Source: a virus
Lineage: Duplodnaviria; Caudoviricetes
Length of the DNA stretch: 64,000 nt
Direction: 5' to 3' (one strand)
IMG/VR virus record: IMGVR_UViG_2882674194_000007
Span: 64,001 to 128,000 of that record
Shown: piece after piece, positions 177 to 36,494 of the stretch
Layout: the number at the start of each line of letters is the position of its first letter
Position numbering within the stretch: position 1 is the first letter of the stretch
Position numbers and translations under genes: made by a program
Notes under the pieces: model-generated
What the model was told of the DNA's origin: nothing
Databases searched by the model: none
Seen by the model: only the letters and a program-made list of their open reading frames with translations

Positions 177-208
177 ATCTAAGTTTTAAGTTATATGGAG
201 GATGCAGA

Positions 209-736: not shown

Positions 737-774
737 GCAATAAAATTAGATATTTAAGGAAGGGATGAGGATAA

Positions 775-1119
775 ATGGATAAAGAACAATTTATCAAATG
801 GAGAGAAAATGGTGGGAAAATTTATAAATATGTATATGAGGTCGAAGCAGGAAAAGAAGATTTAAGAAAAAGCGAATGTGAAGTAGACGCAGTTTATGAA
901 GACGGGTTTAAAACGTTCGGCTTTGGATATCATATCCCATTTGATTGCTTTGAAAAATGGAGAATGCAACATTGGAGTTCAAATTCATATGAATATTTTA
1001 TCTTCTTGACTAATGAACAGAACATATATGATTATTTGGGAGAAATAAAAAAATGTATTGCTGAAGGACTTCAAAAAGAAATAAGGGATTTGCAAAAATC
1101 ATTGGCATTAGTTGTATAA
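775..1119 (+). CDS. Hypothetical phage protein
   Basis: ORF with GAGG RBS after site 741. Confidence 0.7.
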   Translation: MDKEQFIKWRENGGKIYKYVYEVEAGKEDLRKSECEVDAVYEDGFKTFGFGYHIPFDCFEKWRMQHWSSNSYEYFIFLTNEQNIYDYLGEIKKCIAEGLQKEIRDLQKSLALVV

Positions 1120-1162
1120 TCAGCACGACAATGTGATATTTAACTAAATACATTAAGGTAGT

Positions 1163-1197
1163 AAAGCATTTGGAATTAAAATCCAGATGCTTTTTAT
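1163..1197 (+). terminator. Intrinsic terminator-like hairpin
   Basis: AAAGCATTTGGA / TCCAGATGCTTT followed by a T run. Confidence 0.6.
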
Positions 1198-1232
1198 TAT
1201 ATAAAAAATTACATATTTAAGGAGGTTTTAGT

Positions 1233-2162: not shown

Positions 2163-2185
2163 TTTGATGAAATGGAGGAAATGTC

Positions 2186-3223: not shown

Positions 3224-3318
3224 TTTGTATATTCCACGCTGTATATGTGTTGGATCGTGCTCTATACTTCTTCACGAAAAAGAGAAGTAGTTTATATAAA
3301 ATGATTGGAGGAAATAAA

Positions 3319-3636
3319 ATGAAACAGAAAAAGAAACAATATGTAATTAAAGAAGCATATACGGATAATTACCATGTTTTACAGTATATTGATGGAAAAT
3401 TGGAAGGACATAATATTGTATCCTATTATGAATTAGATGGATATATTGCCGCTTTGAAAAATATGGGGTATATTCGGGCATATTACGAAAGAGAATATCA
3501 TGTAAAAATGCTGAGAGCGAAGGAAGATTATGAGTTTGCTCTTGCAGATTATGAAAAGGCAAAAGAAAGTCCGTTGAACCTATCAGATGAAGAAATTGAG
3601 AGATATAGGCGAATTACACATAGTGATGATGAGTAA
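3319..3636 (+). CDS. Hypothetical protein
   Basis: GGAGG RBS before ATG 3319; followed by site 3645. Confidence 0.6.
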   Translation: MKQKKKQYVIKEAYTDNYHVLQYIDGKLEGHNIVSYYELDGYIAALKNMGYIRAYYEREYHVKMLRAKEDYEFALADYEKAKESPLNLSDEEIERYRRITHSDDE

Positions 3637-3676
3637 TGTGTACTTGAAATCATCGTTTCAACTTGTGATACATAGT

Positions 3677-3728
3677 TGCACAGAATATTGTACAAAATAT
3701 TGACAAAACTATGAATATGACATATACT
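3677..3728 (+). promoter_or_regulatory. yefM-yoeB sigma-A promoter with YefM-type operator hexamers
   Basis: TTGACA(3700)-17-TATACT(3723); TGCACA 3677 and TGTACA 3689, 12 bp apart. Confidence 0.7.
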
Positions 3729-3750
3729 ATATTCAAAGGAGAGTGATTGT

Positions 3751-4002
3751 ATGATAGCAACAAATTTTTCAAATGTAAGGAATAACTTCAAAGAAGTTTG
3801 CGATCGGGTTGTACATGATTCTGATATCGCAATAATTACGAGAAAAAACGATGAAAATGTTGTGCTTATGTCTCAGGCACAGTATGATAATCTGATGGAA
3901 AATCTTCATATAAGGGAAAGTAAAGCGAATTATGAGTGGTTGAAAGAGTCTATCAAGCAAGCTGAAGATGGAAAACTTGTAAATTTTGATGTGGAGGATT
4001 AG
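3751..4002 (+). CDS. yefM: YefM/Phd antitoxin
   Basis: NFSNVRNNFK...IITRKNDENVVLMS...NLME; directly upstream of YoeB. Confidence 0.92.
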   Translation: MIATNFSNVRNNFKEVCDRVVHDSDIAIITRKNDENVVLMSQAQYDNLMENLHIRESKANYEWLKESIKQAEDGKLVNFDVED

Positions 4003-4005
4003 TCT

Positions 4006-4260
4006 ATGAATGTATCTTTCACGGAAAATGCTTGGGATGATTATCTTTATTGGCAGAAGATGGACAAGAAAATTGTAAAAAGAATAAATGAATTGATTAA
4101 AGATATAAAGAGAAATCCATTTGATGGACTTGGAAAGCCAGAACCGCTAAAATATGATTTAGCTGGAAAGTGGAGTAGAAGAATAACGGATGAACATAGA
4201 TTAGTTTATCAGGTGGAAGGAAACAATTTAATAGTGTATACTTGCAGATATCATTATTGA
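4006..4260 (+). CDS. yoeB: Txe/YoeB family toxin
   Basis: AWDDYLYW...GKPEPLK...WSRRITDEHRLVY...CRYHY. Confidence 0.95.
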   Translation: MNVSFTENAWDDYLYWQKMDKKIVKRINELIKDIKRNPFDGLGKPEPLKYDLAGKWSRRITDEHRLVYQVEGNNLIVYTCRYHY

Positions 4261-4276
4261 TAATTTAGAGTGGTCT

Positions 4277-4310
4277 GAGAAGCATTGACGGGAATCGTTA
4301 GTGCTTTTCT
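4277..4310 (+). terminator. Terminator after yoeB
   Basis: AGAAGCATTGACG / CGTTAGTGCTTTT hairpin plus T run. Confidence 0.65.
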
Positions 4311-4366
4311 GTTTTAAATGTAGAAATAATATGTAGAAGAAAAATTTGAAAGAAGGGATTTAAAAT

Positions 4367-5227
4367 ATGGGAAATAAAACAAAACAAACAGGTAAGACAG
4401 AGGTATATCCATTTTGGTATATGAAAGATATCAAAAATATGATGGATTATTTTAAAATGAAAGGGCAGTGGCACTGGTATTTAGTGTTTAATTTTGGCTT
4501 GCTTCTTGGAAGACGTATAAGCGATACACTTTATTTAAAATGGTCTGATTTTTATTATGAGAATGGAAGAATGAAGGATGAAACAGATATTGTTGAATGG
4601 AAAACAGGAAAGACTGTTAGATTGTATATTTGTCCAGCTTGTCAAGAAGCATTGAAATTATATATTGATAAAACCGGCACAGACCCGATGGATAATTATA
4701 ACGATTTTGTTTATGGAACTGCTCAAATGTCACAGTTGTTAGAAAATAAAGAAGAGTATCCTGAAGAAAATTGGAAGGAACTAATGATGAAAGCAATACA
4801 AAGTCATGCTGCAGCATTTAGAAAACAGTTTAAGTTAGCGGCAGATGCCTGTAATATACAATATGCGACTTCGACTCATAGTCTTAGGAAAAATTTTGGA
4901 TACTGGTCAGTTAAACTTCATCCATATGATGTGACAACTGTAGACAAATTGCAAGGGATATTTTCACATTCTGATCGCAATACAACTCTTCACTATATCG
5001 GAATTTCAAGAGAAGATGAAAAGAAATTATATTGTGATATGGGAGATTTTATTACTGATATTTCTAATGGGAAGAAACCGATAATCAAGAATAGCCCTGT
5101 AATCCCTTTAAAGGCAGAGGATTTCAGAGAAATTCTTAGTAAGTGTTGGGATATGGCGCAGAATGGAGAAGATAAGTTTGACGGGATTAATAATCTGATT
5201 GGTATGGCAGAAAAATGTATGGTATAA
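4367..5227 (+). CDS. Tyrosine recombinase (catalytic-domain-only type with C-terminal extension)
   Basis: LGRRISD (R), KTGK (K), HSLRK (HxxR), HS...TLHYIG (H, Y nucleophile). Confidence 0.9.
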   Translation: MGNKTKQTGKTEVYPFWYMKDIKNMMDYFKMKGQWHWYLVFNFGLLLGRRISDTLYLKWSDFYYENGRMKDETDIVEWKTGKTVRLYICPACQEALKLYIDKTGTDPMDNYNDFVYGTAQMSQLLENKEEYPEENWKELMMKAIQSHAAAFRKQFKLAADACNIQYATSTHSLRKNFGYWSVKLHPYDVTTVDKLQGIFSHSDRNTTLHYIGISREDEKKLYCDMGDFITDISNGKKPIIKNSPVIPLKAEDFREILSKCWDMAQNGEDKFDGINNLIGMAEKCMV

Positions 5228-5246
5228 TGTTGGAGGATAATTTGAC

Positions 5247-5810
5247 TTGTTAAGAGCAATAGAATTTACGGATAAACGTTTTAAAAAGGAAGAGGATTAT
5301 AATTTATTTAGTCCAATATCAAACAATTGTATTATTTTATGCAATAACTATAAATTGATGGATTCTCTTGCAAAAGAAATATTAGATACAGTCAATGGGA
5401 ATGCAGAGTATAATGTTTATGATTGTGATGATAAGGATATTGGAAATGCAAAAATGTGGTTGTCTTTCGGATTACAGAGAGTGATTGATATAAATGGTCA
5501 GAGAATTACATTATCGCTGGAACCGGCAATCATATATAAAGCTAATGATATAGAAGATATATGGTTGTTTTGCTATAGCGGAACAGATGAAATTGAAACA
5601 TTACCACCATATCAAGAATATATTTATCCTGTGTGCATCTTTAAAGGAAGTCGGAAGGTATGGGAAGATGGTAAAGATGAAGTTTATAAGATGATTTGTA
5701 ATGGAAGATATGGAACATATGATGGTAAATGGATTGATTTACATGGTGATCATTGGGAAGATGAAACTCATAATTGTATATCAAAAGTAAATATGCAATT
5801 AAATGATTGA
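5247..5810 (+). CDS. Hypothetical protein
   Basis: GGAGG RBS; stop codon lies in the spacer of site 5800. Confidence 0.65.
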   Translation: MLRAIEFTDKRFKKEEDYNLFSPISNNCIILCNNYKLMDSLAKEILDTVNGNAEYNVYDCDDKDIGNAKMWLSFGLQRVIDINGQRITLSLEPAIIYKANDIEDIWLFCYSGTDEIETLPPYQEYIYPVCIFKGSRKVWEDGKDEVYKMICNGRYGTYDGKWIDLHGDHWEDETHNCISKVNMQLND

Positions 5811-6356: not shown

Positions 6357-7061
6357 TTGATTGTGTCAAAGAAGGAGAGAAAATTTATGGCAAATTTATT
6401 TGAAAACAAGGATAAACATGATAGTTATGGTATGTTACAGTTTAGTAGGTCTTCTGGTGGAGCAAAATCATTATTTGGAAGCTCCATTCAACATAGAGAT
6501 ACTATAACGATGTATTTAAGAGAAGGAGAAGTTTCCAGAGAACTTAATAGAGATTTTTATTTTGGTGGAGATAGGATTATTGAGTGCGAAATGAGTTATT
6601 CACAATTCGCAGAAGCAATTACATCTATGAATATGGGAACTGGCGTACCTGTTACAATCAAATATATTAAGGGTAAGGGACATATTGAAGAATGTCCATT
6701 TATTGATAAGAAAAAACAATATGAAGAAGAGTTTAAAAATATTCTTGACGAAACAAATAAACAGGCAAATGATTTATTAGAGTCAGTGAGGCAGATGTTT
6801 GAAGAGAAAAAGTCTTTTACTAAGAAGAATAAGGAAGAAATTTTAGAAAAATTAAATCATCTTAGTATGGAGATGAACGGAAACAGAGAGTTTATTTATA
6901 AGCAATTTAATGAGCAAATGGATAAGACAACGTTGGAAGCAAAAGGAGAGATTGAGGCATTTATGCAAAATAAAATCAATTCTGTTGCAAACGCAGCTTT
7001 AGTAGAACATCGAGATGATATTCTAAAGTTGGAAAACCCTGTTGATATAAAAACAGAATAA
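6357..7061 (+). CDS. Hypothetical phage protein (coiled-coil C-terminus; likely start ATG 6387)
   Basis: Long ORF with AAGGAG RBS. Confidence 0.65.
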   Translation: MIVSKKERKFMANLFENKDKHDSYGMLQFSRSSGGAKSLFGSSIQHRDTITMYLREGEVSRELNRDFYFGGDRIIECEMSYSQFAEAITSMNMGTGVPVTIKYIKGKGHIEECPFIDKKKQYEEEFKNILDETNKQANDLLESVRQMFEEKKSFTKKNKEEILEKLNHLSMEMNGNREFIYKQFNEQMDKTTLEAKGEIEAFMQNKINSVANAALVEHRDDILKLENPVDIKTE

Positions 7062-7073
7062 ACAGTTGAATAC

Positions 7074-7544
7074 TTGATTTTATTGGAGGTTTTAATGGAA
7101 GATAATTATACTGGCGATATGATTCTGATAGATAGATTATCAGAATTTTATCCTGTTAATAGTTGGTCATGGAATGAAGGCGAGGTTGTAGAACTTGATG
7201 ACATTGCTTGTGCAATTCATGAAGGACATCCAGAGGAATCAGAGCCGTTTGGTGATACATGGAAACATCCTTGTATGGAGAATAAATCTACTGAGTGGCA
7301 TATAGGAAGGATTTTATATTTTATAAAACATCCAGAGGAAATTAGAGATATAGAGGTTGATAATCTATACAGTGGAGATTATATTTTCCCTGTACCTTCA
7401 ATCATTGATGGAAACCATAGATTCATGGCAGCTATGTGGTTACAGGATCAAGGAAAGATGGGAAAAGTTCATTGTAGATATGGTGGTAGAATGGATTTGT
7501 TGGATTATCTGGTTGGGAAAACGGATGTGTGTCCCGATGAATAA
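7074..7544 (+). CDS. ParB/Srx-like domain protein (likely start ATG 7095)
   Basis: IIDGNHRFMAA motif. Confidence 0.65.
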   Translation: MILLEVLMEDNYTGDMILIDRLSEFYPVNSWSWNEGEVVELDDIACAIHEGHPEESEPFGDTWKHPCMENKSTEWHIGRILYFIKHPEEIRDIEVDNLYSGDYIFPVPSIIDGNHRFMAAMWLQDQGKMGKVHCRYGGRMDLLDYLVGKTDVCPDE

Positions 7545-7561
7545 ATAGGTAAGGTGATGAT

Positions 7562-7993
7562 ATGGGAAAATATTTGGATCAATGTTGTGATGACGCATGG
7601 GATGTTATTCGAGGAAGAAAGAAAATTATTGGGAATAAGATTGTAAGTATCAAAGATACAGAAGAAATTGGGAATAAAGACAAAGAAGTATATGGTTGGT
7701 TAGCTCCTGATGGTACATTTTATCCTGTGGAATTTGGAAATCATCAAGCATGGGCATCTGAATATCTCTTGAAGTTGTATCATGATGGAGAAATATCTGA
7801 TGAACAAGCTAGACCTAAAGATAACGGAGATGTAGGTGATTTATTGACTGATATGGGTTGGATTTTGATTCATAATCCGCATGGTTATGATTTTAAGATT
7901 ACACGAAACCTATCAAAGAGAGTCACGAATAAACAGAAAGATTATTTGCGTAGTATTGGGAAGATTGATTTATTAGAGAAGGAATTTGTATAG
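7562..7993 (+). CDS. Hypothetical protein
   Basis: ORF with RBS; GWLAPDG...H motif. Confidence 0.6.
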   Translation: MGKYLDQCCDDAWDVIRGRKKIIGNKIVSIKDTEEIGNKDKEVYGWLAPDGTFYPVEFGNHQAWASEYLLKLYHDGEISDEQARPKDNGDVGDLLTDMGWILIHNPHGYDFKITRNLSKRVTNKQKDYLRSIGKIDLLEKEFV

Positions 7994-20790: not shown

Positions 20791-21669
20791 ATGAGCGATA
20801 AGAAAATGAAAAGAGACGATTTGGGAAATCGTATGAAAACATTTTATGAGGAGATTCCTAAAACAAGGTTAATGAGACGTTGCCCAGTTATATGTCGGAT
20901 TGATGGCAAAGCATTTCATACGTTTACAGATAAATTTAAAAGACCATTTGATAATATTCTCATAAAAACTATGCAAGAGACAGCAAAATATCTTTGTGAG
21001 AATATCCAGGGATGTCAATTAGCGTATACACAATCAGATGAAATTTCCCTGTTATTGATTGATTATCAGCGATTTGAAACCTCAGCTTGGTTTGACTATG
21101 AAATTCAGAAAATGTGTAGTATTTCTGCAAGCATGGCAACTATGGCATTTAATAAATTCTTTGTTACAAATGTATCAAGTTTTATTTGTAAAATTCATTC
21201 AACGAGAGATGAAAAAGTCATTGCAGAAAATAAAGGATATATAAATGTGTTACAAGATTCTATTTTTAAGGGTGCTATGCTTGATGCCAGAGTCTTCAAT
21301 ATTCCCAAAGAAGAAATAACTAATTATTTCTACTGGCGGCAATTAGATGCCTCAAGAAATAGTATTCAGATGGTAGGACAAGCAAATTTCAGTCATAAGG
21401 AGTTACAGTTTAAATCTTGTAATGACATTCAGGATATGCTCATGACTCAGAAAGGTATTAATTGGAATGACTTTCCTATATATCAGAAGCGTGGGAGCTG
21501 TGTGGTTAGAAATCGAATTATTCTTGAATCAGATGGCGTAAAGGAAAAGTGTATATTGCGTGATCCGAAACAGGGTGAGAATAATTGGATTGTTGATTAT
21601 GATATTCCAATTTTCAAAGGTGATGGCAGAGAATATATTGAACGGTTGGTTAATGTAGGAGAGATGTAA
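20791..21669 (+). CDS. tRNA(His) guanylyltransferase Thg1-like 3'-5' polymerase
   Basis: RIDGKAFHTFT, YTQSDEISL, DARVF, YFYWRQ.DA. Confidence 0.92.
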   Translation: MSDKKMKRDDLGNRMKTFYEEIPKTRLMRRCPVICRIDGKAFHTFTDKFKRPFDNILIKTMQETAKYLCENIQGCQLAYTQSDEISLLLIDYQRFETSAWFDYEIQKMCSISASMATMAFNKFFVTNVSSFICKIHSTRDEKVIAENKGYINVLQDSIFKGAMLDARVFNIPKEEITNYFYWRQLDASRNSIQMVGQANFSHKELQFKSCNDIQDMLMTQKGINWNDFPIYQKRGSCVVRNRIILESDGVKEKCILRDPKQGENNWIVDYDIPIFKGDGREYIERLVNVGEM

Positions 21670-22789
21670 TATGAATGAGTTTGATAAGTGTTATTTCTGT
21701 ACATGTTATGATAAATATGAAGGTTGTGAATGTGGATGTAATAATAAGTCTGGTTTCGATCCAGACCATGACAAAATTATTGCAAAGGCAAAAGAGAAGC
21801 ATATATCGGTGGCAGATGTAATTGCTTTAATGAATATTTGAGGTGGAAGAGTGAAAAGTGGAGATATTGTTATATACAGAGACGATGTAGGAACTGTGGT
21901 TACAGATTTTGAAAATAGAAAGATATTAAGATTTTTGCCTTGTAATTATGGTGTATATTCTACTTCAAGACTCAAAGTAATAACTGAGAACGATGTTAGA
22001 GAAGCAACACATGAGGAAAAACTTGACCTAATAAAAAGAGAATACCATTGGGGAAAAGTCTTAGAGATTCATTGTATTGGTGAATATCAGATTGTTGAGG
22101 CTATTAAAGATGATGGAAAAGTTCATTATCACGGATATATCAATTACAAAGATACCAATACAAGTTATTGTTCGTTGGATTCTGCTTTGGTTGGATGTAT
22201 AGGAAGAAAACATGAGGGTGGAAATGGAAATGCGGCAATGTATTTTTGCAAAATGATAGGCATTGGATAGTGATGAAACTAACATTTTAAGTTGGCGGCT
22301 GAAAGTTTGGTGTAAAGAGAAAGTTTTTAATGAAGAAGGTGTGGAATAGCCTAAAGTCATCCAGTTTTGAAAAATTAATTTCAACCGGAGAAAGGGATAT
22401 ATAGGATGAAAAAATCAGAATTGAAATCTGGAATGATTATTCAAACAACGCATAACAGATTTGGTGTAATAGAGTTAGAAAATAATCGTATTGATATTTG
22501 TTATGACCCAGATTCTATAGATAAAGTTTTAGAAAAGATTTCATTGGATGATATTTTTGAATATGGGGATGGACAATTAGGTATTGGATGTATTTTAGAT
22601 AAAGAAACAAAAGAGAGTTATCCTAATATGTATCGTAATTATGAAGTTGGCGAAAAGGTTATTTTTTATGAAATTGTAGCAATCTATAATTTGCAACAAA
22701 TATATTATAATGGTGAGGGGATATACCCATCAATAAAATTGCAATAATTATAGGAATGAAAATTTGATTTTGTGGTGTGAGGTGATAAG

Positions 22790-23146
22790 ATGACAGAGAA
22801 TGAAGCAATCGCAAGAATGAGGTACAGGATAGATACAGCAACAGAAGTAATTGGAAAGGGTTCTGATGGTAAGGCTTATGAGGATATGGAAATGGCAATC
22901 AAAGCACTTGAAGAAATTCAACAGTACAGAGTAATTGGGACAGTTGAGGAATGTCGAGAGGCACGGGAAAGGCAGATTGGGAAGAACCCCATAATTTTAA
23001 GTGAGCAATCTGTAGAATCAGAGAGAAAATTATATATAGCAAAGTATTTCAAATGTCCTACTTGTGGAAACACATCTACATATTTCGGAGGACTACCTAA
23101 TAATTGTCATAATTGTGGTCAGAGGTTGGAGAGTGATACTACATGA
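22790..23146 (+). CDS. Zinc-ribbon phage protein
   Basis: CPTCG...CHNCGQRL. Confidence 0.6.
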   Translation: MTENEAIARMRYRIDTATEVIGKGSDGKAYEDMEMAIKALEEIQQYRVIGTVEECREARERQIGKNPIILSEQSVESERKLYIAKYFKCPTCGNTSTYFGGLPNNCHNCGQRLESDTT

Positions 23147-23409
23147 TCTACCAAATAGCAGATCAAAAGCATCCATTTATGGGACTATACAACAAGGTTT
23201 GTAAAACCCCTGTTTATTGGTGTCGATTACATCAAGTCTGGTTGTCTGATGATGATGTAAAGAAGAAACAATGTAAATGTAAACAGACTTTTGACATGGT
23301 TGGTACATATTGTTGCGGAAATTTAGTCAAGAAATCAATAAAATGAAACTTTTAAGAGGAGAAAAGAGAAATATTAAATTATAAAACAAAATGAAAAAGG
23401 AGAAAAATT

Positions 23410-24177
23410 ATGTGTAATTTTAAAAGCGGAATTATTTTAAAGAACAAAGTGGTTTTAGCACCAGAAGGAAATGAGAGTCATTCAGATTTATTGGAGAGTC
23501 TTGGTATTGAAGATAATCATATAAATGCAACAAAAACATTTGTAAGAGCAGAATTGATTCCAAAAAACAATGACAAAATGACGGATGTAAAAGAGTGGAG
23601 ATATAAAGTTGATCAGGATATTGTACCTGATTGGTATGAGAAAGATCCAGAGAGATATGAAAAGGAATTCAGAGATGCAGTTGAAAAGTATATGGAAGAT
23701 TGGAGGAAGAAATTCAAATATATTTGTGGGTATTATTGGACAAGTGTACAGGATGGAGATCGTACATATTATTTTATGAATAGTATCCTTAAAAAGTCTG
23801 AGTTTGGTAAGACAAATAATTACGCAGAATCTTATGTACGCAAGGAGCTTGTTAATAGTGAGTTAGCTGAATCTTTAAAGAAAGAATTTGGAGACAAATT
23901 ACTTCCTATTTCGCTGGATTTGACATCAATGGATGGATTTAAGGATTATGATATGGTAGAAGGCGACATTCTCGCGATTACTAATATTCAGTTGTTAATG
24001 AAATTCGGAGAAAGCATTCCATTGATTGATAATTGGTATTGGCTTGCTACACCTAATCAGACACCCAAAAGAGGAGATGCCCGCTGTGTTCAGTTTGTTA
24101 ACTCCTGTGGCTATGTGTGCTACAACGTCTGTGGCTATGACGGGGGCGTGCGTCCGTTTTTTATCCTTAAATCTTAA
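23410..24177 (+). CDS. DGR target protein with C-terminal CLec-like variable domain
   Basis: WYWLATP...GGVRPFF C-terminus encoded by the VR. Confidence 0.9.
   Translation: MCNFKSGIILKNKVVLAPEGNESHSDLLESLGIEDNHINATKTFVRAELIPKNNDKMTDVKEWRYKVDQDIVPDWYEKDPERYEKEFRDAVEKYMEDWRKKFKYICGYYWTSVQDGDRTYYFMNSILKKSEFGKTNNYAESYVRKELVNSELAESLKKEFGDKLLPISLDLTSMDGFKDYDMVEGDILAITNIQLLMKFGESIPLIDNWYWLATPNQTPKRGDARCVQFVNSCGYVCYNVCGYDGGVRPFFILKS
24078..24158 (+). repeat. DGR variable repeat (VR)
   Basis: Aligns to TR at +590 nt; 15 mismatches at TR adenines, 2 at non-A positions. Confidence 0.93.
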
Positions 24178-24219
24178 ATCTTTGAATCTTGCGAGAATCT
24201 TTCGGATAGCCAGGAATTA

Positions 24220-24238
24220 GGCGCTGCGTAGCAGTGCC
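24220..24238 (+). promoter_or_regulatory. DGR target-recognition hairpin
   Basis: GGCGCTGC-GTA-GCAGTGCC downstream of the VR. Confidence 0.7.
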
Positions 24239-24278
24239 GTGGCTTGTCGATGAGCGACTGAAAGGAGCGGAGTAGCCA

Positions 24279-24647
24279 GTGAGCGAAGCGAAACTGGATG
24301 TTATTGTAAAATCAATTAATCTTATGGAATATACCATGACAATTACATCAAACCGAAAGAGGTATCCAGTTAAGCATTTGACATTGGTAAAACGCATCCA
24401 AAATCGCTGTATGGATATATATGAATATTTGCTTGATGCGAATAGGCTGAAATTGGATACTTCAAAATTAGAACGTCAGGAATTACAAACAAAAGCAATT
24501 TCGTGTTGTGATAAATTGTCCTGTTATGTAGAACTTTCTATGAAGTTAAATTTGATTGGAAGTGATACAGTTGAATATTGGCAGAAACAAATAAATGATG
24601 TGAAATATATGAGCATTGCTTGGCGTTCAAAAGATAAAGAGAGATAA
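24279..24647 (+). CDS. avd: DGR accessory variability determinant (four-helix bundle)
   Basis: 122-aa helical, basic protein (RYPVKH...W...I..V...W) between target and TR. Confidence 0.85.
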   Translation: MSEAKLDVIVKSINLMEYTMTITSNRKRYPVKHLTLVKRIQNRCMDIYEYLLDANRLKLDTSKLERQELQTKAISCCDKLSCYVELSMKLNLIGSDTVEYWQKQINDVKYMSIAWRSKDKER

Positions 24648-24667
24648 TTTTAGGTTGTTTGTTGTAT

Positions 24668-24748
24668 AACCCACTATGTTCAGTACGTTAACTCCAATGG
24701 CAATGTGAACTACAACGACTGTGACTATGACAAAGGTGTGCGTCCGTT
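24668..24748 (+). repeat. DGR template repeat (TR)
   Basis: AAC/AAT-rich copy of the VR, flanked by a 12-bp inverted repeat 24652-24663 / 24810-24821 with one G-U pair. Confidence 0.93.
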
Positions 24749-24867
24749 CTGGATCGGAAGACGAAAGAAAGTAAGAGAAACACTGAAATTAGAGTCCCGA
24801 TATCAAAAGAATAAACAACCTTTCCTAGCTCAAAAATGTCAGGATAAATACAAAGGAACAAAATTTT

Positions 24868-25905
24868 ATGATAGAAGATAAATCAGATTTTGAAAAAGTA
24901 GTAGATTTCGGTAATTTGTATCAAGCATATTTAAAATCTAAATCAGGCAAAGGGTTTTCAAAAAGCAGTCAGAAATTTCAAGTGGCAACTCTTGATGGTA
25001 TCCATCAGATAAAGAGAAGATTAGAAACAAAAACATATCAAGTATCAAAATACAATGAATTTACAATATACGAACCGAAAGAAAGAGTCATTAAAGCATG
25101 TTCGTTTGTAGATAAAATTGTACAACATAGTTTGTGTGATAATGTACTTATTCCCAAATTGAGTAAAGAGTTTATTCAAACAAATTATGCTGGGCAGATT
25201 GATAAAGGTACATTATATGGTTTGGATTGTCTGAAATCACAAATGTATTTAGCATATCAGAAATATGGATATGATTGTTGGATTGTAAAAGCTGATATAA
25301 GTAAATTCTTTTATAATATTGACCACAATATTTTGAAGGATATTGTTGGTTATTTTATAGAAGATAAGGATGTGTATTGGTTGTGTGAGAAATTCATTGA
25401 TAGTACAGAAGGGTTAGGGCTTCCTCTGGGGAATCAGATTAGCCAAGTGTATGCGCTTTTATATTTATCAGGTTTGGATCATTTTATTACTGGTGAACTT
25501 GGAGTGAAATACTATGGAAGGTACATGGATGATTTTTATTTGATTGTCCAATGTAAAGAATATGCAAAATGGTGTTTATCTGCGATTTATGAATTTGTAT
25601 ATACATTAGGACTTGAATTAAATGATAAGACACAAATTATTCCGTTTAAGAATGGAATTAAGTTTTGCGGATTTCATACATATGTCACTTTAGATGGCAA
25701 AGTTATCCGAAAGCTGAAGAACGAAAATAAGCGTGTTGCTAAAAAGAAATTTAAGAAAATGGTTGGATTAGTGAGGTGTGGTAAACTTAGCAAAGATAAA
25801 TTTTATGAGAGTTACAATGCTTGGAAAAATCATATATCACATGGCAATTGTGTGAAATTAGGATATGAGATGGATAGATATGTAGAAGAGTTATTTGGAA
25901 AATAA
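24868..25905 (+). CDS. DGR reverse transcriptase
   Basis: LPLGNQISQ (DGR-type LGxxxSQ), RYMDD, KADISKFF. Confidence 0.95.
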   Translation: MIEDKSDFEKVVDFGNLYQAYLKSKSGKGFSKSSQKFQVATLDGIHQIKRRLETKTYQVSKYNEFTIYEPKERVIKACSFVDKIVQHSLCDNVLIPKLSKEFIQTNYAGQIDKGTLYGLDCLKSQMYLAYQKYGYDCWIVKADISKFFYNIDHNILKDIVGYFIEDKDVYWLCEKFIDSTEGLGLPLGNQISQVYALLYLSGLDHFITGELGVKYYGRYMDDFYLIVQCKEYAKWCLSAIYEFVYTLGLELNDKTQIIPFKNGIKFCGFHTYVTLDGKVIRKLKNENKRVAKKKFKKMVGLVRCGKLSKDKFYESYNAWKNHISHGNCVKLGYEMDRYVEELFGK

Positions 25906-26244
25906 AAGAGAGGTTCATTATGAATTACGAGGTAGAAGATCAGTATAACGTTTTTATCAAAGATGTAGAAACAGGTTTACTTTCTCACGAATTATATTTA
26001 AGAGAAGACGAGTACGAAGATGAATATTCTCACAGTGTGATTGATAGAGGACATGTATTATTATCTGAAAGAATTAGAAAATATCTACATGATAAATTAC
26101 CCAATCAGTATTGTGTATTTGTAGATTGGTGTGTTCGTGTTATGTCAGTAGAGATGGCAGAAAAGAAAAATATTAGCAATTATAAAAACTATATTGTTAA
26201 GTAGTTGAAACACGAGTTTCATAGATGAGGAGTGAGAAAGATAA

Positions 26245-26736
26245 ATGTTAAAGCCAGCACAATTATATAAAGATGAATTGCAGAAGAGAAACATTGAAAC
26301 ATGGTATGACCAGAGATATATGTATTATCACAGCGGAACAGGCGCATATGATATTCAGTTTGCGGATAATAATTGCGATAAGCACCAGTTTGTGTCTGTA
26401 GACAAAGATGATAATGTACTTGGTTATATATCTTACAAAATTGATTGGTGCGCTTTAAATGCTGACAACTTTGGAATTATAAGCTATGACATGGGAAATG
26501 TTGAATTTGCAAAAGACTGTTATAAAGTGGTATGTGATTTATTTGAAAAGTATCACATGAATAGAGTTGGATGGTTTGCTTTTGCTGATAATCCTGCAAT
26601 TAGAGGGTATAGAAGTTTTATAAAGAAACATGGAGGTAGGGAATGTGCTTATTTGCGGCAGATTTCTAAACTTACAGACGGAAATTTACATGACGCTGTT
26701 GAATTTGAAATATTGGCAGAGGAATTTATTCGATAA
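26245..26736 (+). CDS. GNAT/RimL-like acetyltransferase-fold protein
   Basis: LGYISY...FEKYHMNRV...DNPA...HGG...DGNLHD pattern; single-gene unit between sites 26206 and 26734. Confidence 0.6.
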   Translation: MLKPAQLYKDELQKRNIETWYDQRYMYYHSGTGAYDIQFADNNCDKHQFVSVDKDDNVLGYISYKIDWCALNADNFGIISYDMGNVEFAKDCYKVVCDLFEKYHMNRVGWFAFADNPAIRGYRSFIKKHGGRECAYLRQISKLTDGNLHDAVEFEILAEEFIR

Positions 26737-27222
26737 ATCGAAGGTTTCAAGGAAGGAGCGTGAGTAATATTAAAGAAAATATGATTAAAACGCAAATAGG
26801 TAAAAATATATTTCATGAATATGATTCAAATTCACTTTTTGATCGAAATATAGAAGAATTTCATAATATGACAAAAGACCATACTGAAATTTTAGGTCAA
26901 TTTCTTGATTTTACAGCAATGAGTATAGAACAACTTAAAGAGTGTTTGTTAAGTGGTTATATACACATGGATAGAGGTAAGTTTATTAGCAGATGAATGA
27001 AACATTTCAACTGAGGAGGTAGATAAAGTGAAGCCTTGGGGAGGCAATGAACTTGATTATCGTGGATGTAAAATAAAGAATAATAAAAGAGAAAAATGCC
27101 TTTATATTTATGATAGTAAAGGAAATTTTCTCTTTAAAGTAGATAATTATAATCATGGAGCCATATCAAGTGCTAAAGAGTCTATTGATATTTTGATTAA
27201 AAGATATGAACAATTATAGAAT

Positions 27223-27791: not shown

Positions 27792-29414
27792 TTGAGAGAA
27801 AGAGTAAAATTAACAGCAAATATTTTGTTCTCTGGTATTGGATGCCAGGAACGTGGCTTTAGAGATTCAGGATTATTTGATATAGAAGTGCTAAATACAT
27901 CAGATATAAACAAAGAATCAGTCTTGTCATATGCAGCCATTCATTGTGGAATGACAAATGAAATGGTTGATACATATACAGATTATCCTTCAAGAGAGGA
28001 AATGGCGCAGTATTTAACTGATATCAATTTAGGATATAAACCAGAAAAGGATAAATATTTTGATTGGTTTAAGCTAATAGAGAGAAAGAAAAATGATTTA
28101 GAGAAGTATTGGTTAGCTTGCAAATTGACACATAATCTTGGAGATATTACTAAAATTGAAGATTTACCATATGCAGATTTTTGTACTGTTAGCTTTCCTT
28201 GCCAGTCGATTTCTGTTGCCGGCAAAATGAAAGGGTTAAAACCAGATAGCGGAACAAGAAGCAGCTTGTTGTGGGATAATATTAGACTTCTAAGCAAAGC
28301 AAAAGAAAATAATAAACTTCCACAATACATAATGTTTGAGAATGTAAAAAATCTTGTAAGCAAGAAATTTATTGCTGATTTTAATGATCTACTGGATGTA
28401 TTAGATGAGTTGGGATTTAATTCTTATTGGTCTGTGATAAACGGAAAAGATTGTGGAATTCCTCAATCAAGAGAAAGAGTATTTGTAATTTCAATCAGAA
28501 AAGACATTGATAAAGGTAAGTATGAGTTTCCTGTTCCGTTTGATACTGGTATTCGTTTGAAAGATGTTTTAGAGAATCAGGTTGACGAAAAATATTATTT
28601 ACCAGATGAAAAAGTTCAGGAATTTCTTAAAACTATTGATTTATCACAGTTTCGTAAAGAAGATAATAAACTTCATCAACTTGGATATATAAATGATTAC
28701 AATGGAGATGCGAACAGAATATATTCGGATAATGTGGCTAGGACTTTGAAATCTGAAGCTGGTGGAGGGGCAAAAACAGGATGGTATGCAACAAAAAATG
28801 AAATTTTAAAAGTTGGAAAAATTAGTTCGTCTCAGGATGGAATTGTTGCATCGCCAGAGGGAGTATCAAAGACACATACCGCAGGACATAATAATATGCC
28901 CAAAATTATTTGTGGAATAGATAAGTCGATTAATGATCCGCAGATACTTGAAAGTGCAAATTGTATAACTTCGAGAGAAGATAGGGGAGTAAGCAATAGA
29001 AAAGCTGAAGGAACGGCAATACTTGAATATAATACCAATAAAATTCTAGCAATTGGTCAGGTGTCAAATGAAGGATCTCAAGCAGGAAAAGTATATAGTA
29101 TGGAAGGAGTCAGTCAAACTATTTGTGCATGTACACATGGATATGCAATAGGAAATATATTTGATTATACCAGAATTCGTAAATTAACTCCAAGGGAGTG
29201 TTATAGACTTATGGGACTTACATTTGAAGATTGTGACAAAGCTACAGAATTAGGTGTTGTTGATACTCATTTGTATAAGCAAGCTGGCAATGGTATAATT
29301 ACAAATTCCTGCGCATTGTTGGCTGAACATTTATATAAGGCACAATATGATGATACATATATCTGTACAGATGAGAGGTTACAAGGAAATTTTACCAAAC
29401 CACAAGCGGAGTGA
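27792..29414 (+). CDS. C5-cytosine DNA methyltransferase, probably multispecific
   Basis: LFSGIG (I), SFPCQ (IV), ENV (VI), PQSRER (VIII), QAGNG (X); long repeated variable region. Confidence 0.93.
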   Translation: MRERVKLTANILFSGIGCQERGFRDSGLFDIEVLNTSDINKESVLSYAAIHCGMTNEMVDTYTDYPSREEMAQYLTDINLGYKPEKDKYFDWFKLIERKKNDLEKYWLACKLTHNLGDITKIEDLPYADFCTVSFPCQSISVAGKMKGLKPDSGTRSSLLWDNIRLLSKAKENNKLPQYIMFENVKNLVSKKFIADFNDLLDVLDELGFNSYWSVINGKDCGIPQSRERVFVISIRKDIDKGKYEFPVPFDTGIRLKDVLENQVDEKYYLPDEKVQEFLKTIDLSQFRKEDNKLHQLGYINDYNGDANRIYSDNVARTLKSEAGGGAKTGWYATKNEILKVGKISSSQDGIVASPEGVSKTHTAGHNNMPKIICGIDKSINDPQILESANCITSREDRGVSNRKAEGTAILEYNTNKILAIGQVSNEGSQAGKVYSMEGVSQTICACTHGYAIGNIFDYTRIRKLTPRECYRLMGLTFEDCDKATELGVVDTHLYKQAGNGIITNSCALLAEHLYKAQYDDTYICTDERLQGNFTKPQAE

Positions 29415-34222: not shown

Positions 34223-34295
34223 TTAATAAAGAAAGGATAAAATCAGAAGTTCCTATAGGTGAAAAGTGCGCACAGCTTATGACGGTAAGCGAGGA

Positions 34296-36494
34296 ATGAG
34301 AATTTTACTTTTATTAAGAGGATCTGCCGGATGTGGGAAATCTACATGGATTGAGAAAAATGGATTAAAACCATATACATTGTCGGCTGATGATATAAGG
34401 CTTCTGTGTCAGAGTCCTATTATGCAAGTAGATGGCGCTGAAGGCATCAGCCAGGTAAACGATAATGTCACATGGAAGACTTTATTTAATTTGTTAGAAG
34501 TCAGAATGCAGAAGGGTGAATTTACTGTAATTGACGCTACAAATTCTAAGACTTCTGAAATGAACAGATATAAGGAAATGTGCAATACATATAGATACAG
34601 GATTTATTGTGTTGATTTTACGGATATTTCTATTGATGAAGTTAAGAGAAGGAATGCAAACAGAGAAGTATTAAAGAGAGTCCCTGAAGAAGTGATTGAT
34701 AAGATGTATTCAAGATTTGCAACTCAGAAAATACCATCAGGTATCAAAGTTATCAAACCTGATGAATTAGATACTATCTGGATGAGAATGATCGATATGT
34801 CTGAATACAAAAAGATTCATCATATTGGAGATATTCATGGATGTAATACAGTTTTGCAGAAGTACTTATCAGATAATGGTGGTATGAAAGATGATGAGTT
34901 TTATATTTTTACAGGTGATTATATTGATAGAGGACTTGAAAATGCCGATGTTGTAAAATTTCTCATTTCCATTAAGGATAAGAAAAATGTTCTTATGTTG
35001 GAGGGGAATCATGAGAGATGGTTGTGGCTATATGCAAATGGATGTACAGGTAAATCAAAAGAATTTGAATTAATTACAAAACCAGCTCTGGAAGAAGCGA
35101 GAATTGATAAGAAGGATATAAGGCAGCTTTATAGAAGATTTGGTCAGTGTGTTTATTATAAATATGGCGATAATGTTTATTTGGTTACTCATGCTGGACT
35201 TAGTACGCTTCCAAAGAATTTGTCATTTGTAGCAACGGATCAGATGATTAGAGGTGTTGGTGGTTACAATGATTTTGAGAAAATCGCAGAAACATTTGTC
35301 AACACTACACCAGACAATGTTTATCAGATTCATGGACACAGAAATACAAAGAGATTAGATACAAAGGTAAATGACAGGGTATTCAATTTGGAAGGTCGTG
35401 TGGAATTTGGTGGAGAATTAAGATGTGTACAGGTTGATAAAAATGGTATTCACACAATCGAAATTCAAAATGAAGTATTCAAGACACCGGAAATGCAGAG
35501 TGAACAGACTGTTACAAGTAGTTCAGTTACAGACACGATTATCTCTTTAAGGGCTAATAGATATATTCAGGAAAAGAAATTTGGCAATATCTCTTCCTTT
35601 AATTTTACTGAAAAGGCATTTTATGACAAGGTTTGGGATGAACAGACCACAAAATCAAGAGGGTTATATCTTGATACCCTAAAAGGAAAAGTAGTTGCAA
35701 GGGCATATGATAAGTTCTTTAATATCAACGAAAGACCAGAAACGAAGTTTGATATGCTGCAATACAAACTGCAATTTCCTGTAACAGCTTATGTTAAAGA
35801 AAATGGTTTCTTGGGCATTGTAAGTTACAACGAATATGAAGATGATTTGTTGATTGCAAGTAAGTCTACTCTTGATAGCCAGTTTGCACAGTGGTTTAGA
35901 GAAATGTTATATGAAAAGATTTCTGCTGACAATATTCAGGAAATGAAGAAATATATTAAAGAGCATAATGTTTCATTTGTATTTGAGTGTGTTGACATGA
36001 AGAATGACCCACATATTATCGAATATCCAAACAGTGAATTATTCTTACTTGATATTGTTCAGAATGATATGAACTTTTCTAAATATGAATATGACACAAT
36101 GGTTGATGTTGCTAATCAGTTTGGAATTACAACGAAAGAAAAGGCATTTGAGATTGCAACATGGCAGGAGTTCTTTGATTGGTACTATGACATTTTGGAA
36201 GAAGATTATGAGTATGATGGACGCAAGATTGAAGGATTTGTCATTGAGGACAGTGTAGGCTACATGACAAAACTGAAACTGACATACTACAATTTCTGGA
36301 AGTTTATGAGAAGTATTTCACATGAAGCGATCAGGAATGGATATATCAGGAAGACATCGGCTTTAACTACTCCAACAGCAAATGAATATTATGCTTGGGT
36401 TAGAAAATTGCACGATGTAGAAGATAAAGATAGTATTCCGAGAGATATTTGTACGCTGAGAAGACTGTTTTATAAGGACAAGGAGAAAAATTGA
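34296..36494 (+). CDS. Polynucleotide kinase-metallophosphatase-RNA ligase (Rnl1-like) fusion
   Basis: GSAGCGKS P-loop; GDIHG/GDYIDRG/GNHE phosphoesterase; KENGFLG ligase motif I and EGFV. Confidence 0.9.
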   Translation: MRILLLLRGSAGCGKSTWIEKNGLKPYTLSADDIRLLCQSPIMQVDGAEGISQVNDNVTWKTLFNLLEVRMQKGEFTVIDATNSKTSEMNRYKEMCNTYRYRIYCVDFTDISIDEVKRRNANREVLKRVPEEVIDKMYSRFATQKIPSGIKVIKPDELDTIWMRMIDMSEYKKIHHIGDIHGCNTVLQKYLSDNGGMKDDEFYIFTGDYIDRGLENADVVKFLISIKDKKNVLMLEGNHERWLWLYANGCTGKSKEFELITKPALEEARIDKKDIRQLYRRFGQCVYYKYGDNVYLVTHAGLSTLPKNLSFVATDQMIRGVGGYNDFEKIAETFVNTTPDNVYQIHGHRNTKRLDTKVNDRVFNLEGRVEFGGELRCVQVDKNGIHTIEIQNEVFKTPEMQSEQTVTSSSVTDTIISLRANRYIQEKKFGNISSFNFTEKAFYDKVWDEQTTKSRGLYLDTLKGKVVARAYDKFFNINERPETKFDMLQYKLQFPVTAYVKENGFLGIVSYNEYEDDLLIASKSTLDSQFAQWFREMLYEKISADNIQEMKKYIKEHNVSFVFECVDMKNDPHIIEYPNSELFLLDIVQNDMNFSKYEYDTMVDVANQFGITTKEKAFEIATWQEFFDWYYDILEEDYEYDGRKIEGFVIEDSVGYMTKLKLTYYNFWKFMRSISHEAIRNGYIRKTSALTTPTANEYYAWVRKLHDVEDKDSIPRDICTLRRLFYKDKEKN

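Follow-up and report, generated by a model that had tools for sequence, protein, structure and literature searches.

Among the targets of phage DGRs, most are proteins of the tail or of head decoration (bioRxiv 10.64898/2026.01.26.701711, PMC12934698). The DGR described here, whose carrier is a giant gut-bacterial prophage, raises the question of whether its target is a protein of that kind or one that acts within the cell, and of whether the DGR and its target travel together between phages. The window (the whole stretch of DNA that was analysed, 64,000 nucleotides long) was first read from its letters alone, and that sequence-only reading proposed an intracellular hypervariable binder, possibly with an anti-defence role, together with a route by which the DGR could spread as a cassette between short flanking sites. 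The features of the locus are listed below in order; handles beginning with L denote relatives of the phage, and G401 is a phage with a very divergent replication module.

23339 to 23354, no strand: site L, 16 bp, TRAAW-N6-WTTYA (TAAAATGAAACTTTTA), overlapping the stop codon with which the 67-aa gene upstream ends
23355 to 23409, plus strand: A-rich leader with the RBS of the target gene, retained in L006 and G401 along with the DGR block
23410 to 23709, plus strand: N-terminal domain of the target (residues 1-100), compact alpha/beta, without a recognisable known fold (AF2 pLDDT 95)
23710 to 24177, plus strand: C-terminal C-type-lectin (DUF6273-like) domain of the target, with its last beta-hairpin encoded by the VR
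24078 to 24158, plus strand: VR (variable repeat); its final 14 nt (24145-24158) form the beginning of the IMH and are GC-rich
24220 to 24238, plus strand: hairpin 3' of the VR, with an 8-bp stem and a GTA loop, and with compensatory changes in L006 and L117
24279 to 24647, plus strand: avd (accessory variability determinant), 122 aa, with matches to phrog_3206 and NF033474
24668 to 24748, plus strand: TR (template repeat), with 24 adenines and five AAY codons
24749 to 24867, plus strand: spacer between TR and RT, presumably within the TR-containing RNA by analogy with BPP-1
24868 to 25905, plus strand: DGR reverse transcriptase (RT), 345 aa, with LGNQISQ, YMDD, and a match to phrog_1423
25920 to 26204, plus strand: small ORF of unknown function, 94 aa, within the slot and outside the DGR, with no family match
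26206 to 26221, no strand: site R, 16 bp (TGAAACACGAGTTTCA), which matches TRAAW-N6-WTTYA

The DGR and its activity

Judged by its sequence, the locus is a complete, canonical DGR. An ungapped comparison of VR with TR (offset 590, 81 nt) reproduces the differences that the sequence-only reading had reported between 24078-24158 and 24668-24748: 15 at TR adenines (9 A>G and 6 A>T) and 2 at other bases (24096 C>T and 24147 T>C). The two copies part ways after 24158, as is expected for an IMH in VR (GGCGTGCGTCCGTT) and its IMH* counterpart in TR (GGTGTGCGTCCGTT), and the 3' end of the repeat is GC-rich, as in other DGRs. The GTA-loop hairpin, avd, and the RT with LGNQISQ and YMDD that were named in the same reading are all present, by sequence and by profile matches. 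The hairpin (GGCGCTGC-GTA-GCAGTGCC) has the form GGAATGC-GTCA-GCATTCC in relatives, where compensatory changes preserve the stem, and the same hairpin is found 3' of both targets in G401. (Its folding stability was dropped as evidence, as the energy is unexceptional, with z 0.08; covariation was used in its place.) The avd gene, which has the canonical position between target and TR, matches phrog_3206 ("Avd protein of DGR") at 1.9e-17 and NF033474 at 2.8e-7, the latter with 30.8 bits, under that model's 80-bit cut-off. The RT has both motifs of the DGR clade, (I/L/V)GxxxSQ as LGNQISQ and YxDD as YMDD. Its match to phrog_1423 is at 3.5e-103; among solved structures it is closest to the BPP-1 DGR RT (bRT; 8ub7, 1.1e-31), with a group II intron RT at 4e-14. 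A 58-aa ORF that spans TR and the spacer was rejected as a gene; it is a read-through of the repeat.

Comparison of homologous sequences indicates that the DGR is evidently active on evolutionary timescales. Among 112 close homologues of the target (81-96% identity), column entropy averages 1.05 bits over the VR part versus 0.37 elsewhere, and it peaks at 2.8-3.1 bits at the five AAY codons (231, 233, 235, 237, and 239). Amino-acid variation across these homologues is highest at the A-containing TR codons, so that the VR variation anticipated by the sequence-only reading is seen as variability between samples, which is not within-strain evidence. Beyond the window, VR was compared with its own TR at six loci (five distinct sequences); at five of the six (four distinct), VR differs from its TR at 12-18 adenines versus 1-2 other bases. 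The non-A differences between lineages appear in TR and VR alike. The TR allows ~10^13 protein variants. The genome has a single VR: a search of the rest of the 4.8-Mb genome, which the first reading had proposed, found no further VRs, and no paralogues of the target were found in its own genome.

The target protein and its likely place of action

The target gene (23410-24177) encodes 255 aa. Its AF2 model (pLDDT 94.7) supplies the structure prediction that the sequence-only reading had called for, and it resolves the protein into a C-type-lectin domain that carries the VR and an N-domain without a recognisable fold. The model and its structural matches place the VR on the C-terminal beta-hairpin within a C-type-lectin fold; among the matches are the 9qa6 NTD (Z 13.9), Lcl (8q4e, Z 9.3), and TvpA (2y3c, Z 8.3), itself a DGR target, and those in BFVD are DUF6273 phage proteins. 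By sequence, the lectin domain matches phrog_9958 at 1.4e-24. The target matches Pfam DUF6273 (PF19789) with 17.7 bits (E 0.0034) over residues 208-255 only, where the cut-off is 23.5, and a precomputed PF19789 hit is present in two cluster relatives; NCBIfam gave no match for it.

The N-domain is common to many proteins with different C-termini. A search for a known fold in the PDB gave a best Z of 5.4 (RNase PH-like), which is within noise, and a PDB sequence profile search likewise gave noise only (frataxin at E 0.2). BFVD yielded a single homologous fragment, a protein-atlas search gave only sub-0.9 leads, and no Pfam family was found either for this part of the target or for N-domain proteins with other C-termini.

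A non-virion role of the target is likely, because no TM segment is predicted (the maximum 19-residue Kyte-Doolittle hydropathy is 1.15), because no structural gene was found among the annotated genes of the window, and because relatives of the N-domain lie in early or replication regions. The annotated window genes include Thg1, Dcm, RNA ligase/PNK, DNA polymerase, helicase, and primase. The N-domain relatives occupy early or replication regions in all three of the other (temperate) phages examined, and never a tail module: homologues (42-57% identity) closely follow the repressor/cro switch in Dulem virus 35 and in MT835516, and the homologue in MT836499 adjoins exonuclease, DnaD, and DnaB. 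Close relatives of the phage lack the target protein, and the whole unit is dispensable there. Map position is weak evidence, as the structural genes of large phages are scattered; three phages are the whole basis of the early-gene argument, and the fold of the N-domain offers no functional clue. Domains of the DUF6273 and C-type-lectin kinds are usually found outside the cell or exposed on the virion, and most phage DGR targets belong to the tail or to head decoration; both observations speak against a non-virion reading.

Two other roles have to be weighed. The target might be a virion-associated adhesin, that is, an accessory receptor-binding or decoration protein encoded outside the structural module, whose N-domain docks onto the particle while the DGR adjusts how it binds host or mucus, in the manner of BPP-1 Mtd, tentaclins, and Hoc-like targets. 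The lectin domain does match the DGR target TvpA as well as DUF6273 phage proteins, some of which are annotated as receptor-binding or tail; small DUF6273-only gut-phage targets have been read as Mtd-like RBPs (PMC10743442, bioRxiv 10.1101/2024.10.15.618418); and tail fibres, too, usually combine an N-terminal module that is conserved with C-terminal binding parts that are interchangeable. However, an adhesin of this sort is unlikely given that the annotated genes of the window include no structural gene, that in three of three phages the N-domain relatives lie outside the tail modules, that the gene is missing from near-identical relatives, and that neither fibre repeats nor a trimerisation helix appear in the AF2 model. 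(The sequence-only reading had likewise seen no TM segment or fibre repeats in the protein, and both observations stand.) Quite improbable is a prophage defence or superinfection-exclusion sensor that is expressed in the lysogen, where it would be a hypervariable receptor for incoming phage proteins and would signal via the N-domain, acting in defence and not in counter-defence. This idea draws on the defence-type genes in the accessory arms of the phage group (GmrSD_N, PemK toxin, and HD-CE in L006), on the gene with a DUF262/GmrSD-like motif that adjoins the second target of G401, and on bacterial DGR targets, which work cited in PMC8008677 ties to signalling and defence. Yet the homologues of the N-domain are placed to the lytic side of the repressor/cro switch, a position that suggests that they are expressed upon infection or induction rather than in the lysogen, and no effector-type domain is recognisable in the target.

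A non-structural, intracellular target is the better-supported reading, compared with a structural one. Of the intracellular hypervariable binder proposed at the outset, the non-structural part is favoured by the N-domain relatives (in early or replication regions in three of three phages), by the annotated window genes, none of them structural, and by the dispensability of the unit in close relatives; the anti-defence part remains a guess, based only on neighbouring genes.

The slot and its junction sites

Both flanking sites, which consist of 5-bp arms around a 6-bp centre, match TRAAW-N6-WTTYA, and the DGR plus one small ORF does lie between those at 23339 and 26206, as was first noticed from the sequence. 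This motif occurs 45 times in the window versus 12.8 expected, a count that 0 of 100 shuffles reached. Gene junctions account for 13% of the sequence and for 34 of the 45 copies; sites are placed after a stop codon and before the RBS that follows. Bracketing of the DGR by sites was rejected as a statistic: with a site at 33 of 101 junctions, a row of 3-4 site-free junctions is unremarkable. The weight of the slot claim therefore comes from comparative data and not from bracketing alone.

Relatives retain sites L and R, and the slot between them is filled by the DGR or by unrelated genes. In L107, whose upstream genes o118 and o67 are at 97-98% identity, site L and site R are 377 bp apart with only a 104-120-aa ORF between them. 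(BLAST extends the L107 homology up to the target ATG; this is a spurious A-rich extension by the alignment, and the true break is at the site.) L112, L113, and L116 have a 70-aa CxxC ORF and others after site L, and the homology of L112 and L113 ends at 23356. The leader at 23355 to 23409 is replaced in DGR-less relatives. The core of site L (AAATGRAACTTTYAAG) is the sole sequence common to five different combinations of upstream and downstream flanks, and the centre of site R, CACGAG, is kept in L006, L010, L107, and L117, where the genes on both flanks differ. In independent comparisons the left-side breakpoints are within 2 nt of site L, and at site L (breaks 23337 and 23356) as well as at site R the endpoints of indels or replacements coincide with the element. 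The small ORF after RT is swapped with no site on its left, an unrelated 76-aa membrane-type ORF replacing the 94-aa ORF in L006 and L117; the flanking small ORFs have no match in Pfam or NCBIfam.

The same block is present in G401. The DNA polymerase of this phage is 26% identical to that of the window and other shared genes are 21-77% identical; for Avd, RT, and the target, the values are 96.7%, 90.1%, and 74.6%. The block of nucleotide homology corresponds to window 23337 to 25907, with its left start exactly at site L and its right edge at the RT stop codon, where there is no site; in G401 the sites are barely enriched (12 in 40 kb). The comparison with G401 supports movement of the DGR block between very different phages. 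In the L237 lineage, avd-TR-RT is either present or absent, with no site at the break (an indel between L237 and L238), and in L238 and L239 the targets remain while the DGR is absent. A blastn search of the locus against GenBank phages found nothing, a family-wide DNA search of 400 genomes gave fragmentary hits only, and a related-loci search with P0160 gave no results.

Cassette spread of the DGR, as proposed in the sequence-only reading, is supported by the alternative contents of the slot and by the recurrence of the block in the divergent G401; the right end of that block is the RT stop and not site 26206. The suggestion in the same reading that the DGR boundaries in relatives would be related to the sites holds for the left edge, at site L, and fails at the RT stop and at the L237/L238 break, both of which are site-free. 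In part, then, the slot between sites L and R appears to be swappable; no recombinase is implicated.

A chance only a little short of even can be given to a different account, in which the 16-bp sites are ordinary regulatory elements (operator, promoter-associated, or RNA-processing), the DGR is no mechanistic cassette, and the slot pattern comes merely from homologous recombination at short conserved intergenic islands. A 5-N6-5 palindrome has the geometry of the operator of a dimeric regulator, the position of the sites between a stop codon and the following RBS is in keeping with such elements, and several breakpoints, namely the RT stop and the avd-TR-RT indel, fall off any site. Regulatory elements would nevertheless have to accommodate left breakpoints that fall no more than 2 nt from site L in independent comparisons, and site centres that are slot-specific and conserved though both flanks change. 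In addition, scans of 22300-27000 for sigma-70 promoters and terminators showed no enrichment and none at the sites, where phage or host promoters may differ from those scanned for.

A proposed model and known systems

Taken together, these comparisons moderately favour a reading in which a canonical, evolutionarily active DGR diversifies a target that is most likely cytoplasmic, early, and non-virion, and in which the unit occupies an exchangeable slot and the DGR block has moved between phages. By the BPP-1 paradigm, RT and Avd would copy the TR-containing RNA with adenine-specific errors, and the cDNA, guided by the GC-rich IMH and the downstream hairpin, would replace VR. In this way ~16 codons on the ligand-binding face of the lectin domain would be re-randomised, with roughly 10^13 variants. 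The target would most likely be cytoplasmic and be made early in infection or induction, not as part of the virion; its N-domain may be a shared functional or docking module, and its lectin domain an adjustable binder of a variable partner in phage-host or phage-phage conflict. The unit, which runs from site L and the leader through target, avd, TR, and RT to one small ORF, fills one slot of the accessory arm, bounded by two 16-bp sites with slot-specific centres that relatives keep, with other genes between them. The DGR block has, in addition, moved into G401, a phage whose replication module is very divergent. Exchange would most likely occur by recombination at short conserved junction islands, as with the PeSLs of T4-type phages. 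A bolder version is doubtful, though it deserves mention: a portable, self-diversifying intracellular binder, an antibody-like early protein with a lectin tip that its own DGR re-randomises, that tracks a variable host defence or rival-phage protein and whose kit moves via address-coded 16-bp junction sites from the accessory arm of one large phage to that of an unrelated one.

To our knowledge, almost all that is known experimentally of phage DGRs concerns receptor binding by tail proteins. If the only target of this DGR is early and probably cytoplasmic, programmed hypermutation would extend to intracellular phage-host conflict, an idea that, as far as we know, has been raised once for a DGR, in the case of Quimbyvirus, and never tested. 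The locus provides a clean test case: there is one VR, the target is small, soluble, and two-domain with a confidently modelled structure, natural variants number more than 1,400 (1,489 homologues of the target), and close relatives with and without the unit are available for comparison. A DGR and its target can behave as a transferable module among large Lachnospiraceae phages, which helps to explain the high density of DGRs in the gut.

Among known systems, the BPP-1 DGR (mtd-avd-TR-brt) has the same order of target, avd, TR, and RT, a VR at the C-terminus of a C-type-lectin fold, adenine-specific substitutions, a GC-rich IMH at the 3' end, and a hairpin after VR. However, Mtd is a trimeric tail-fibre tip protein encoded in the structural module, whereas the present target has two domains, one of them (the N-domain) without a recognisable fold, is encoded in an accessory/early arm, and is dispensable in relatives.

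For the sites, the nearest parallel is provided by the PeSLs of T4-type phages (PMC2839356, PMC4122927). There, as here, non-essential genes of hyperplastic regions have short repeated elements in the intergenic gaps on their flanks, and it is at these elements that insertions, deletions, and replacements stop when relatives are compared. PeSLs, however, are promoter-plus-terminator cassettes in near-identical copies, whereas the present sites, palindromes of 16 bp, have slot-specific centres, and the 22300-27000 scans detected neither a promoter nor a terminator signal at them. Integron gene cassettes (attC/IntI) also have promoter-less genes in series, short palindromic separators, and contents that vary between relatives; but attC sites are imperfect inverted repeats of at least 50 nt that fold in single-stranded form, and the sites here have 16 bp, with several breakpoints lying off them.

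For the target, small DUF6273-only DGR targets are known (PMC10743442, PMC11792537). In nd4/nd12 target2, the Faecalibacterium prophages Lelie/CP11, and Toutatisvirus, small proteins have a DUF6273/C-lec domain with a C-terminal VR (PMC10743442, PMC11792537, bioRxiv 10.1101/2024.10.15.618418), and target2 of nd4 and of nd12 match the present target at 29-30% identity. In these gut-phage systems, too, the DGR is sometimes absent while targets remain, as in L238 and L239. Unlike the present target, they are read as RBPs or decoration proteins and lack its N-domain, and the match to Pfam DUF6273 here falls short of the gathering threshold. The second target of Quimbyvirus, for which a non-structural nature and a location in a defence island were proposed (Benler et al. 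2021, PMC8008677), is a C-type-lectin protein distal to the structural genes, beside methyltransferases and a tRNA ligase, for which a part in phage-host conflict was proposed (PMC8008677); the neighbourhood here similarly holds Dcm, Thg1, and RNA ligase/PNK. The classical view, against which the sequence-only reading set this locus, that phage DGRs diversify tail proteins, is out of date as an exclusive rule (PMC8008677, PMC10743442, PMC11792537). In Quimbyvirus, however, a phage of Bacteroides with a frameshifted RT, that second target is remote and the main target lies beside tail fibres (PMC8008677), whereas here the genome's only target is the one read as non-structural, and it adjoins its DGR.

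The retroelement and signs of its natural activity

The window is a portion of contig C133 in a 4.8-Mb genome, and between its positions 20 and 30 kb every gene lies on the + strand. The parts of the diversity-generating retroelement (DGR), and of the slot that holds it between the 16-bp junction sites L and R, are as follows.

Features of the slot
23339-23354: site L
23410-24177 (+): target gene, 255 aa
24078-24158: variable repeat (VR)
24220-24238: hairpin, GGCGCTGC-GTA-GCAGTGCC
24279-24647 (+): avd; hits the PHROG Avd family (1.9e-17) and, with a sub-threshold score, the NCBIfam Avd model
24668-24748: template repeat (TR)
24868-25905 (+): reverse transcriptase (RT) with LGNQISQ and YMDD; matches phrog_1423 at 3.5e-103
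25920-26204 (+): small ORF o94
26206-26221: site R

VR and TR form an ungapped alignment in which the copies are offset by 590 nt, and the differences described in the sequence-only reading proved exact: 15 TR adenines and 2 non-A positions. Similarity is lost past 24158, and the final common stretch is GC-rich, with GGCGTGCGTCCGTT in VR and GGTGTGCGTCCGTT in TR; this is the usual IMH/IMH* layout. The folding energy of the hairpin is not out of the ordinary. At the same position two relatives' loci, L006 and L117, have GGAATGC-GTCA-GCATTCC, and thus the stem has been preserved through changes in both arms. The solved structure nearest to the RT is the Bordetella phage DGR RT (8ub7; 1.1e-31), far above group II intron and retron RTs. 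The hairpin, avd and RT that had been noted earlier are confirmed, and by all features testable the locus belongs to the DGR family. A search of the entire 4.8-Mb genome revealed no second VR partner for the TR.

Variation among relatives follows the TR. There are 1,489 homologues of the target in the database, and the close ones come from Lachnospiraceae. Among 112 of these (81-96% identity), mean column entropy is 0.37 bits over columns 1-220 versus 1.05 bits over the final 36. The maxima, 2.8-3.1 bits, occur at residues 231, 233, 235, 237, and 239, which are the five AAY codons of the TR (in the target frame, THYVQYVNSNGNVNYNDCDYDKGVRP), and the remaining A-containing codons yield smaller peaks; the repertoire encoded by the TR is ~10^13 proteins. 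VR and TR were also compared at the DNA level in six further loci, representing five distinct sequences (L006 = L010). In L006, L010, L111, L117, and the isolate genome G401, the VR departs from the TR of its own locus at 12-18 adenines and 1-2 further positions. Lineage-specific non-A changes are present in TR and VR alike, and the TR therefore repeatedly overwrites the VR. Locus L106 (9288-9970 of metagenome contig Ga0137307_102337) combines an 81-nt TR with an 84-nt-type VR; its 10 non-adenine differences, versus 1-2 in all other loci, suggest a recombinant DGR in which either TR or VR came from a different lineage.

The 16-bp sites and movement of the DGR block

The motif TRAAW-N6-WTTYA is present 45 times in the window (12.8 expected), with 34 of the copies at gene junctions. 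Because just a third of junctions carry a site, finding a four-gene operon between two sites is unremarkable per se; it is the comparison with relatives, not the bracketing, that carries the weight. A DGR immediately follows the equivalent of site L in L006, L010, L106, L109, L110, L111, and L117. In L107, which is DGR-less, the upstream genes o118 and o67 are kept at 97-98% identity, and 377 bp run from site L to site R (centre CACGAG) with an unrelated 104-120-aa ORF inside. L112 and L113, also DGR-less, have a 70-aa CxxC ORF, a small membrane ORF, and further ORFs after site L; L116 has this same content, but o67 is missing and site L comes straight after o118. In junction alignments, the site L core AAATGRAACTTTYAAG is the sole sequence common to five left/right flank combinations, and site R is a shared island amid four. 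Along the arm, the order of site centres is kept in relatives while the intervening genes differ.

On the right, the conserved DGR block stops at the RT stop codon (25896-25907), a position that has no site. Beyond it, the ORF preceding site R has been swapped: the window has o94 (soluble, 94 aa), whereas the ORF in L006 and L117 is unrelated to it, is 76 aa long and contains hydrophobic segments. The earlier proposal of a DGR cassette delimited by both sites stands for its left edge and for the alternation of slot contents, but not for the right edge of the conserved block. From these alignments, the sites appear to account for some but not all breakpoints.

Features compared in relatives
Window 25896-26204; L006:12505-12738; L117:11227-11457: swapped small gene between RT and site R; left break at the RT stop codon, without a 16-bp site
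L237:7792-9513 versus L238:7792-7821 and L239:7860-7871: presence or absence of avd-TR-RT
L230:1498-2109 (-) = G401:C5:135690-136301: second target of G401, 203 aa, ~18 kb from the DGR
L232:9480-9760 (-): hairpin region of the G401 second target

G401 is a 6.1-Mb Lachnospiraceae isolate whose phage, on a 243-kb contig, has the overall layout of the window. Its DNA polymerase gene, which shares the strand of the DGR and lies ~38 kb downstream, encodes a protein just 26% identical to that of the window, no RNA-ligase homologue was found in G401 with the window's protein as query, and the genes common to both over 40 kb are 21-77% identical. The DGR is far more alike (Avd, 96.7%; RT, 90.1%; target, 74.6%), and a block of 82% nucleotide homology spans window positions 23337-25907, with site L at one end and the stop codon of the RT at the other, and its flanks cannot be aligned. 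Because of this disparity, the block would seem to have moved recently between diverged phages, and the pattern is hard to explain otherwise. The second target of G401 has a lectin domain 37% identical to that of the window and a short N-terminus of a different type; it is followed by an IMH and hairpin as in the window-type DGR, and it adjoins a 346-aa gene with a putative DUF262/GmrSD-like motif, seen by eye in the translation. The window's genome has no remote second target of this type.

The 153-kb viral contig L237 represents a further lineage (identities: target, 54%; Avd, 70%; RT, 74%). In the near-identical L238 and L239, the target with its VR is retained while avd-TR-RT is exactly missing, with no sites at the breakpoints; in L239 the target homologue is present twice (1763-2527 and 7001-7759). 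Taken together, the G401 and L237-lineage comparisons indicate that diversifier and target can be gained or lost jointly or separately.

The target protein and its possible role

An AlphaFold2 model of the target, built from a 60-sequence alignment, is confident (pLDDT 94.7) and has two domains. Residues 101-255 are predicted to adopt a C-type-lectin fold. Among its structure matches, the IgA peptidase of Thomasclavelia ramosa scores Z 13.9 through its lectin-like N-terminal domain, a domain of uncharacterised function (PMC12237041); Legionella Lcl scores Z 9.3 through its C-terminal domain, TvpA, a DGR target from Treponema, scores Z 8.3, and numerous ordinary C-type lectins score Z ~7. In BFVD the matches include phage proteins annotated DUF6273. 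The score against Pfam DUF6273 is under threshold and phrog_9958 is matched at 1.4e-24; structurally, the modeled domain is of the DUF6273 type. In gut phages, DUF6273/C-lec domains that carry the VR at the C-terminus form a well-recognised group of DGR targets (PMC10743442, PMC11792537, bioRxiv 10.1101/2024.10.15.618418). The target has no hydrophobic segment, in agreement with the earlier observation that a TM segment is absent, and no paralogue was found in the genome.

Residues 1-100 are a separate module. In an exhaustive profile-free search, this N-domain was found alone in many 200-445-aa proteins with unrelated C-termini, and the lectin part alone or behind other N-termini. In several N-domain proteins the domain is followed by an extended array with a nine-residue unit (DNSTVQNMx); P0155, P0160, P0166, P0196, and P0261 have 15-30 tandem copies. 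These repeat proteins have no Pfam match, and the array is probably a beta-solenoid, so that one early-gene N-domain is apparently coupled to two kinds of binding scaffold. Folded by itself, the N-domain is again confident (pLDDT 95.2) and shows no likeness above noise to solved structures (best Z 5.4).

Is the target part of the virion? DGR targets with a lectin fold are mostly exposed proteins, and structural genes are scattered in large phages; both points count against a non-virion target. No structural gene was found among the annotated genes of the window, the recognisable ones being a Thg1-type tRNA-His guanylyltransferase, Dcm methylase, RNA ligase/polynucleotide kinase, PAPS-reductase-like protein, DnaB helicase, primase, and DNA polymerase. 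In three other phages, N-domain relatives located by tblastn occupy early-gene positions. In Dulem virus 35 the N-domain gene comes after a divergent repressor pair and before replication genes, with tail, lysis, and integrase genes on the other side; in MT835516 endolysin, integrase, and repressor are followed, on the opposite strand, by a small ORF and the N-domain gene; in MT836499 it precedes an exonuclease, DnaD-like loader, DnaB, and methyltransferase. Because of these positions and the dispensability of the target in sister phages, a non-virion, early, cytoplasmic protein is the best-supported reading and a reasonably probable one; the earlier claim of a non-structural target is thereby favored, short of proof.

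The same arm contains the Thg1-type enzyme (20791-21669), the Dcm cytosine methylase (27792-29414), and the RNA ligase, a fusion with polynucleotide kinase-phosphatase (34266-36494), a tRNA-repair/DNA-modification kit typical of counter-defence. In the sister phage L006 (ENA contig NODE_66_length_124501), positions 1-5400, upstream of the DGR slot, encode HD-CE, a GmrSD_N protein, and a pair made up of an HTH protein and a PemK toxin, so that such slots commonly hold defence-type cargo. From this neighbourhood, the target may have an anti-defence role.

Comparison with known systems

The locus is unusual in that the genome's only target is a protein that seems to be non-structural and has an uncharacterised early-gene domain, in that a very large prophage has the DGR unit in an accessory arm, and in that this unit is demonstrably modular and has moved between phages. 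It is of interest because it offers a clean case, open to testing, of a phage DGR whose target is probably not the cell surface. An integron was rejected as a model for the slot, since the sites measure 16 bp and nothing implicates an integrase; the exchange that PeSLs mediate in T4-type phages is the nearest analogue of the shuffling (PMC2839356, PMC4122927). For the target itself the likeness is to Quimbyvirus, whose second target, situated among methyltransferases and a tRNA ligase, has been tied to anti-defence by the same argument from neighbouring genes (PMC8008677).
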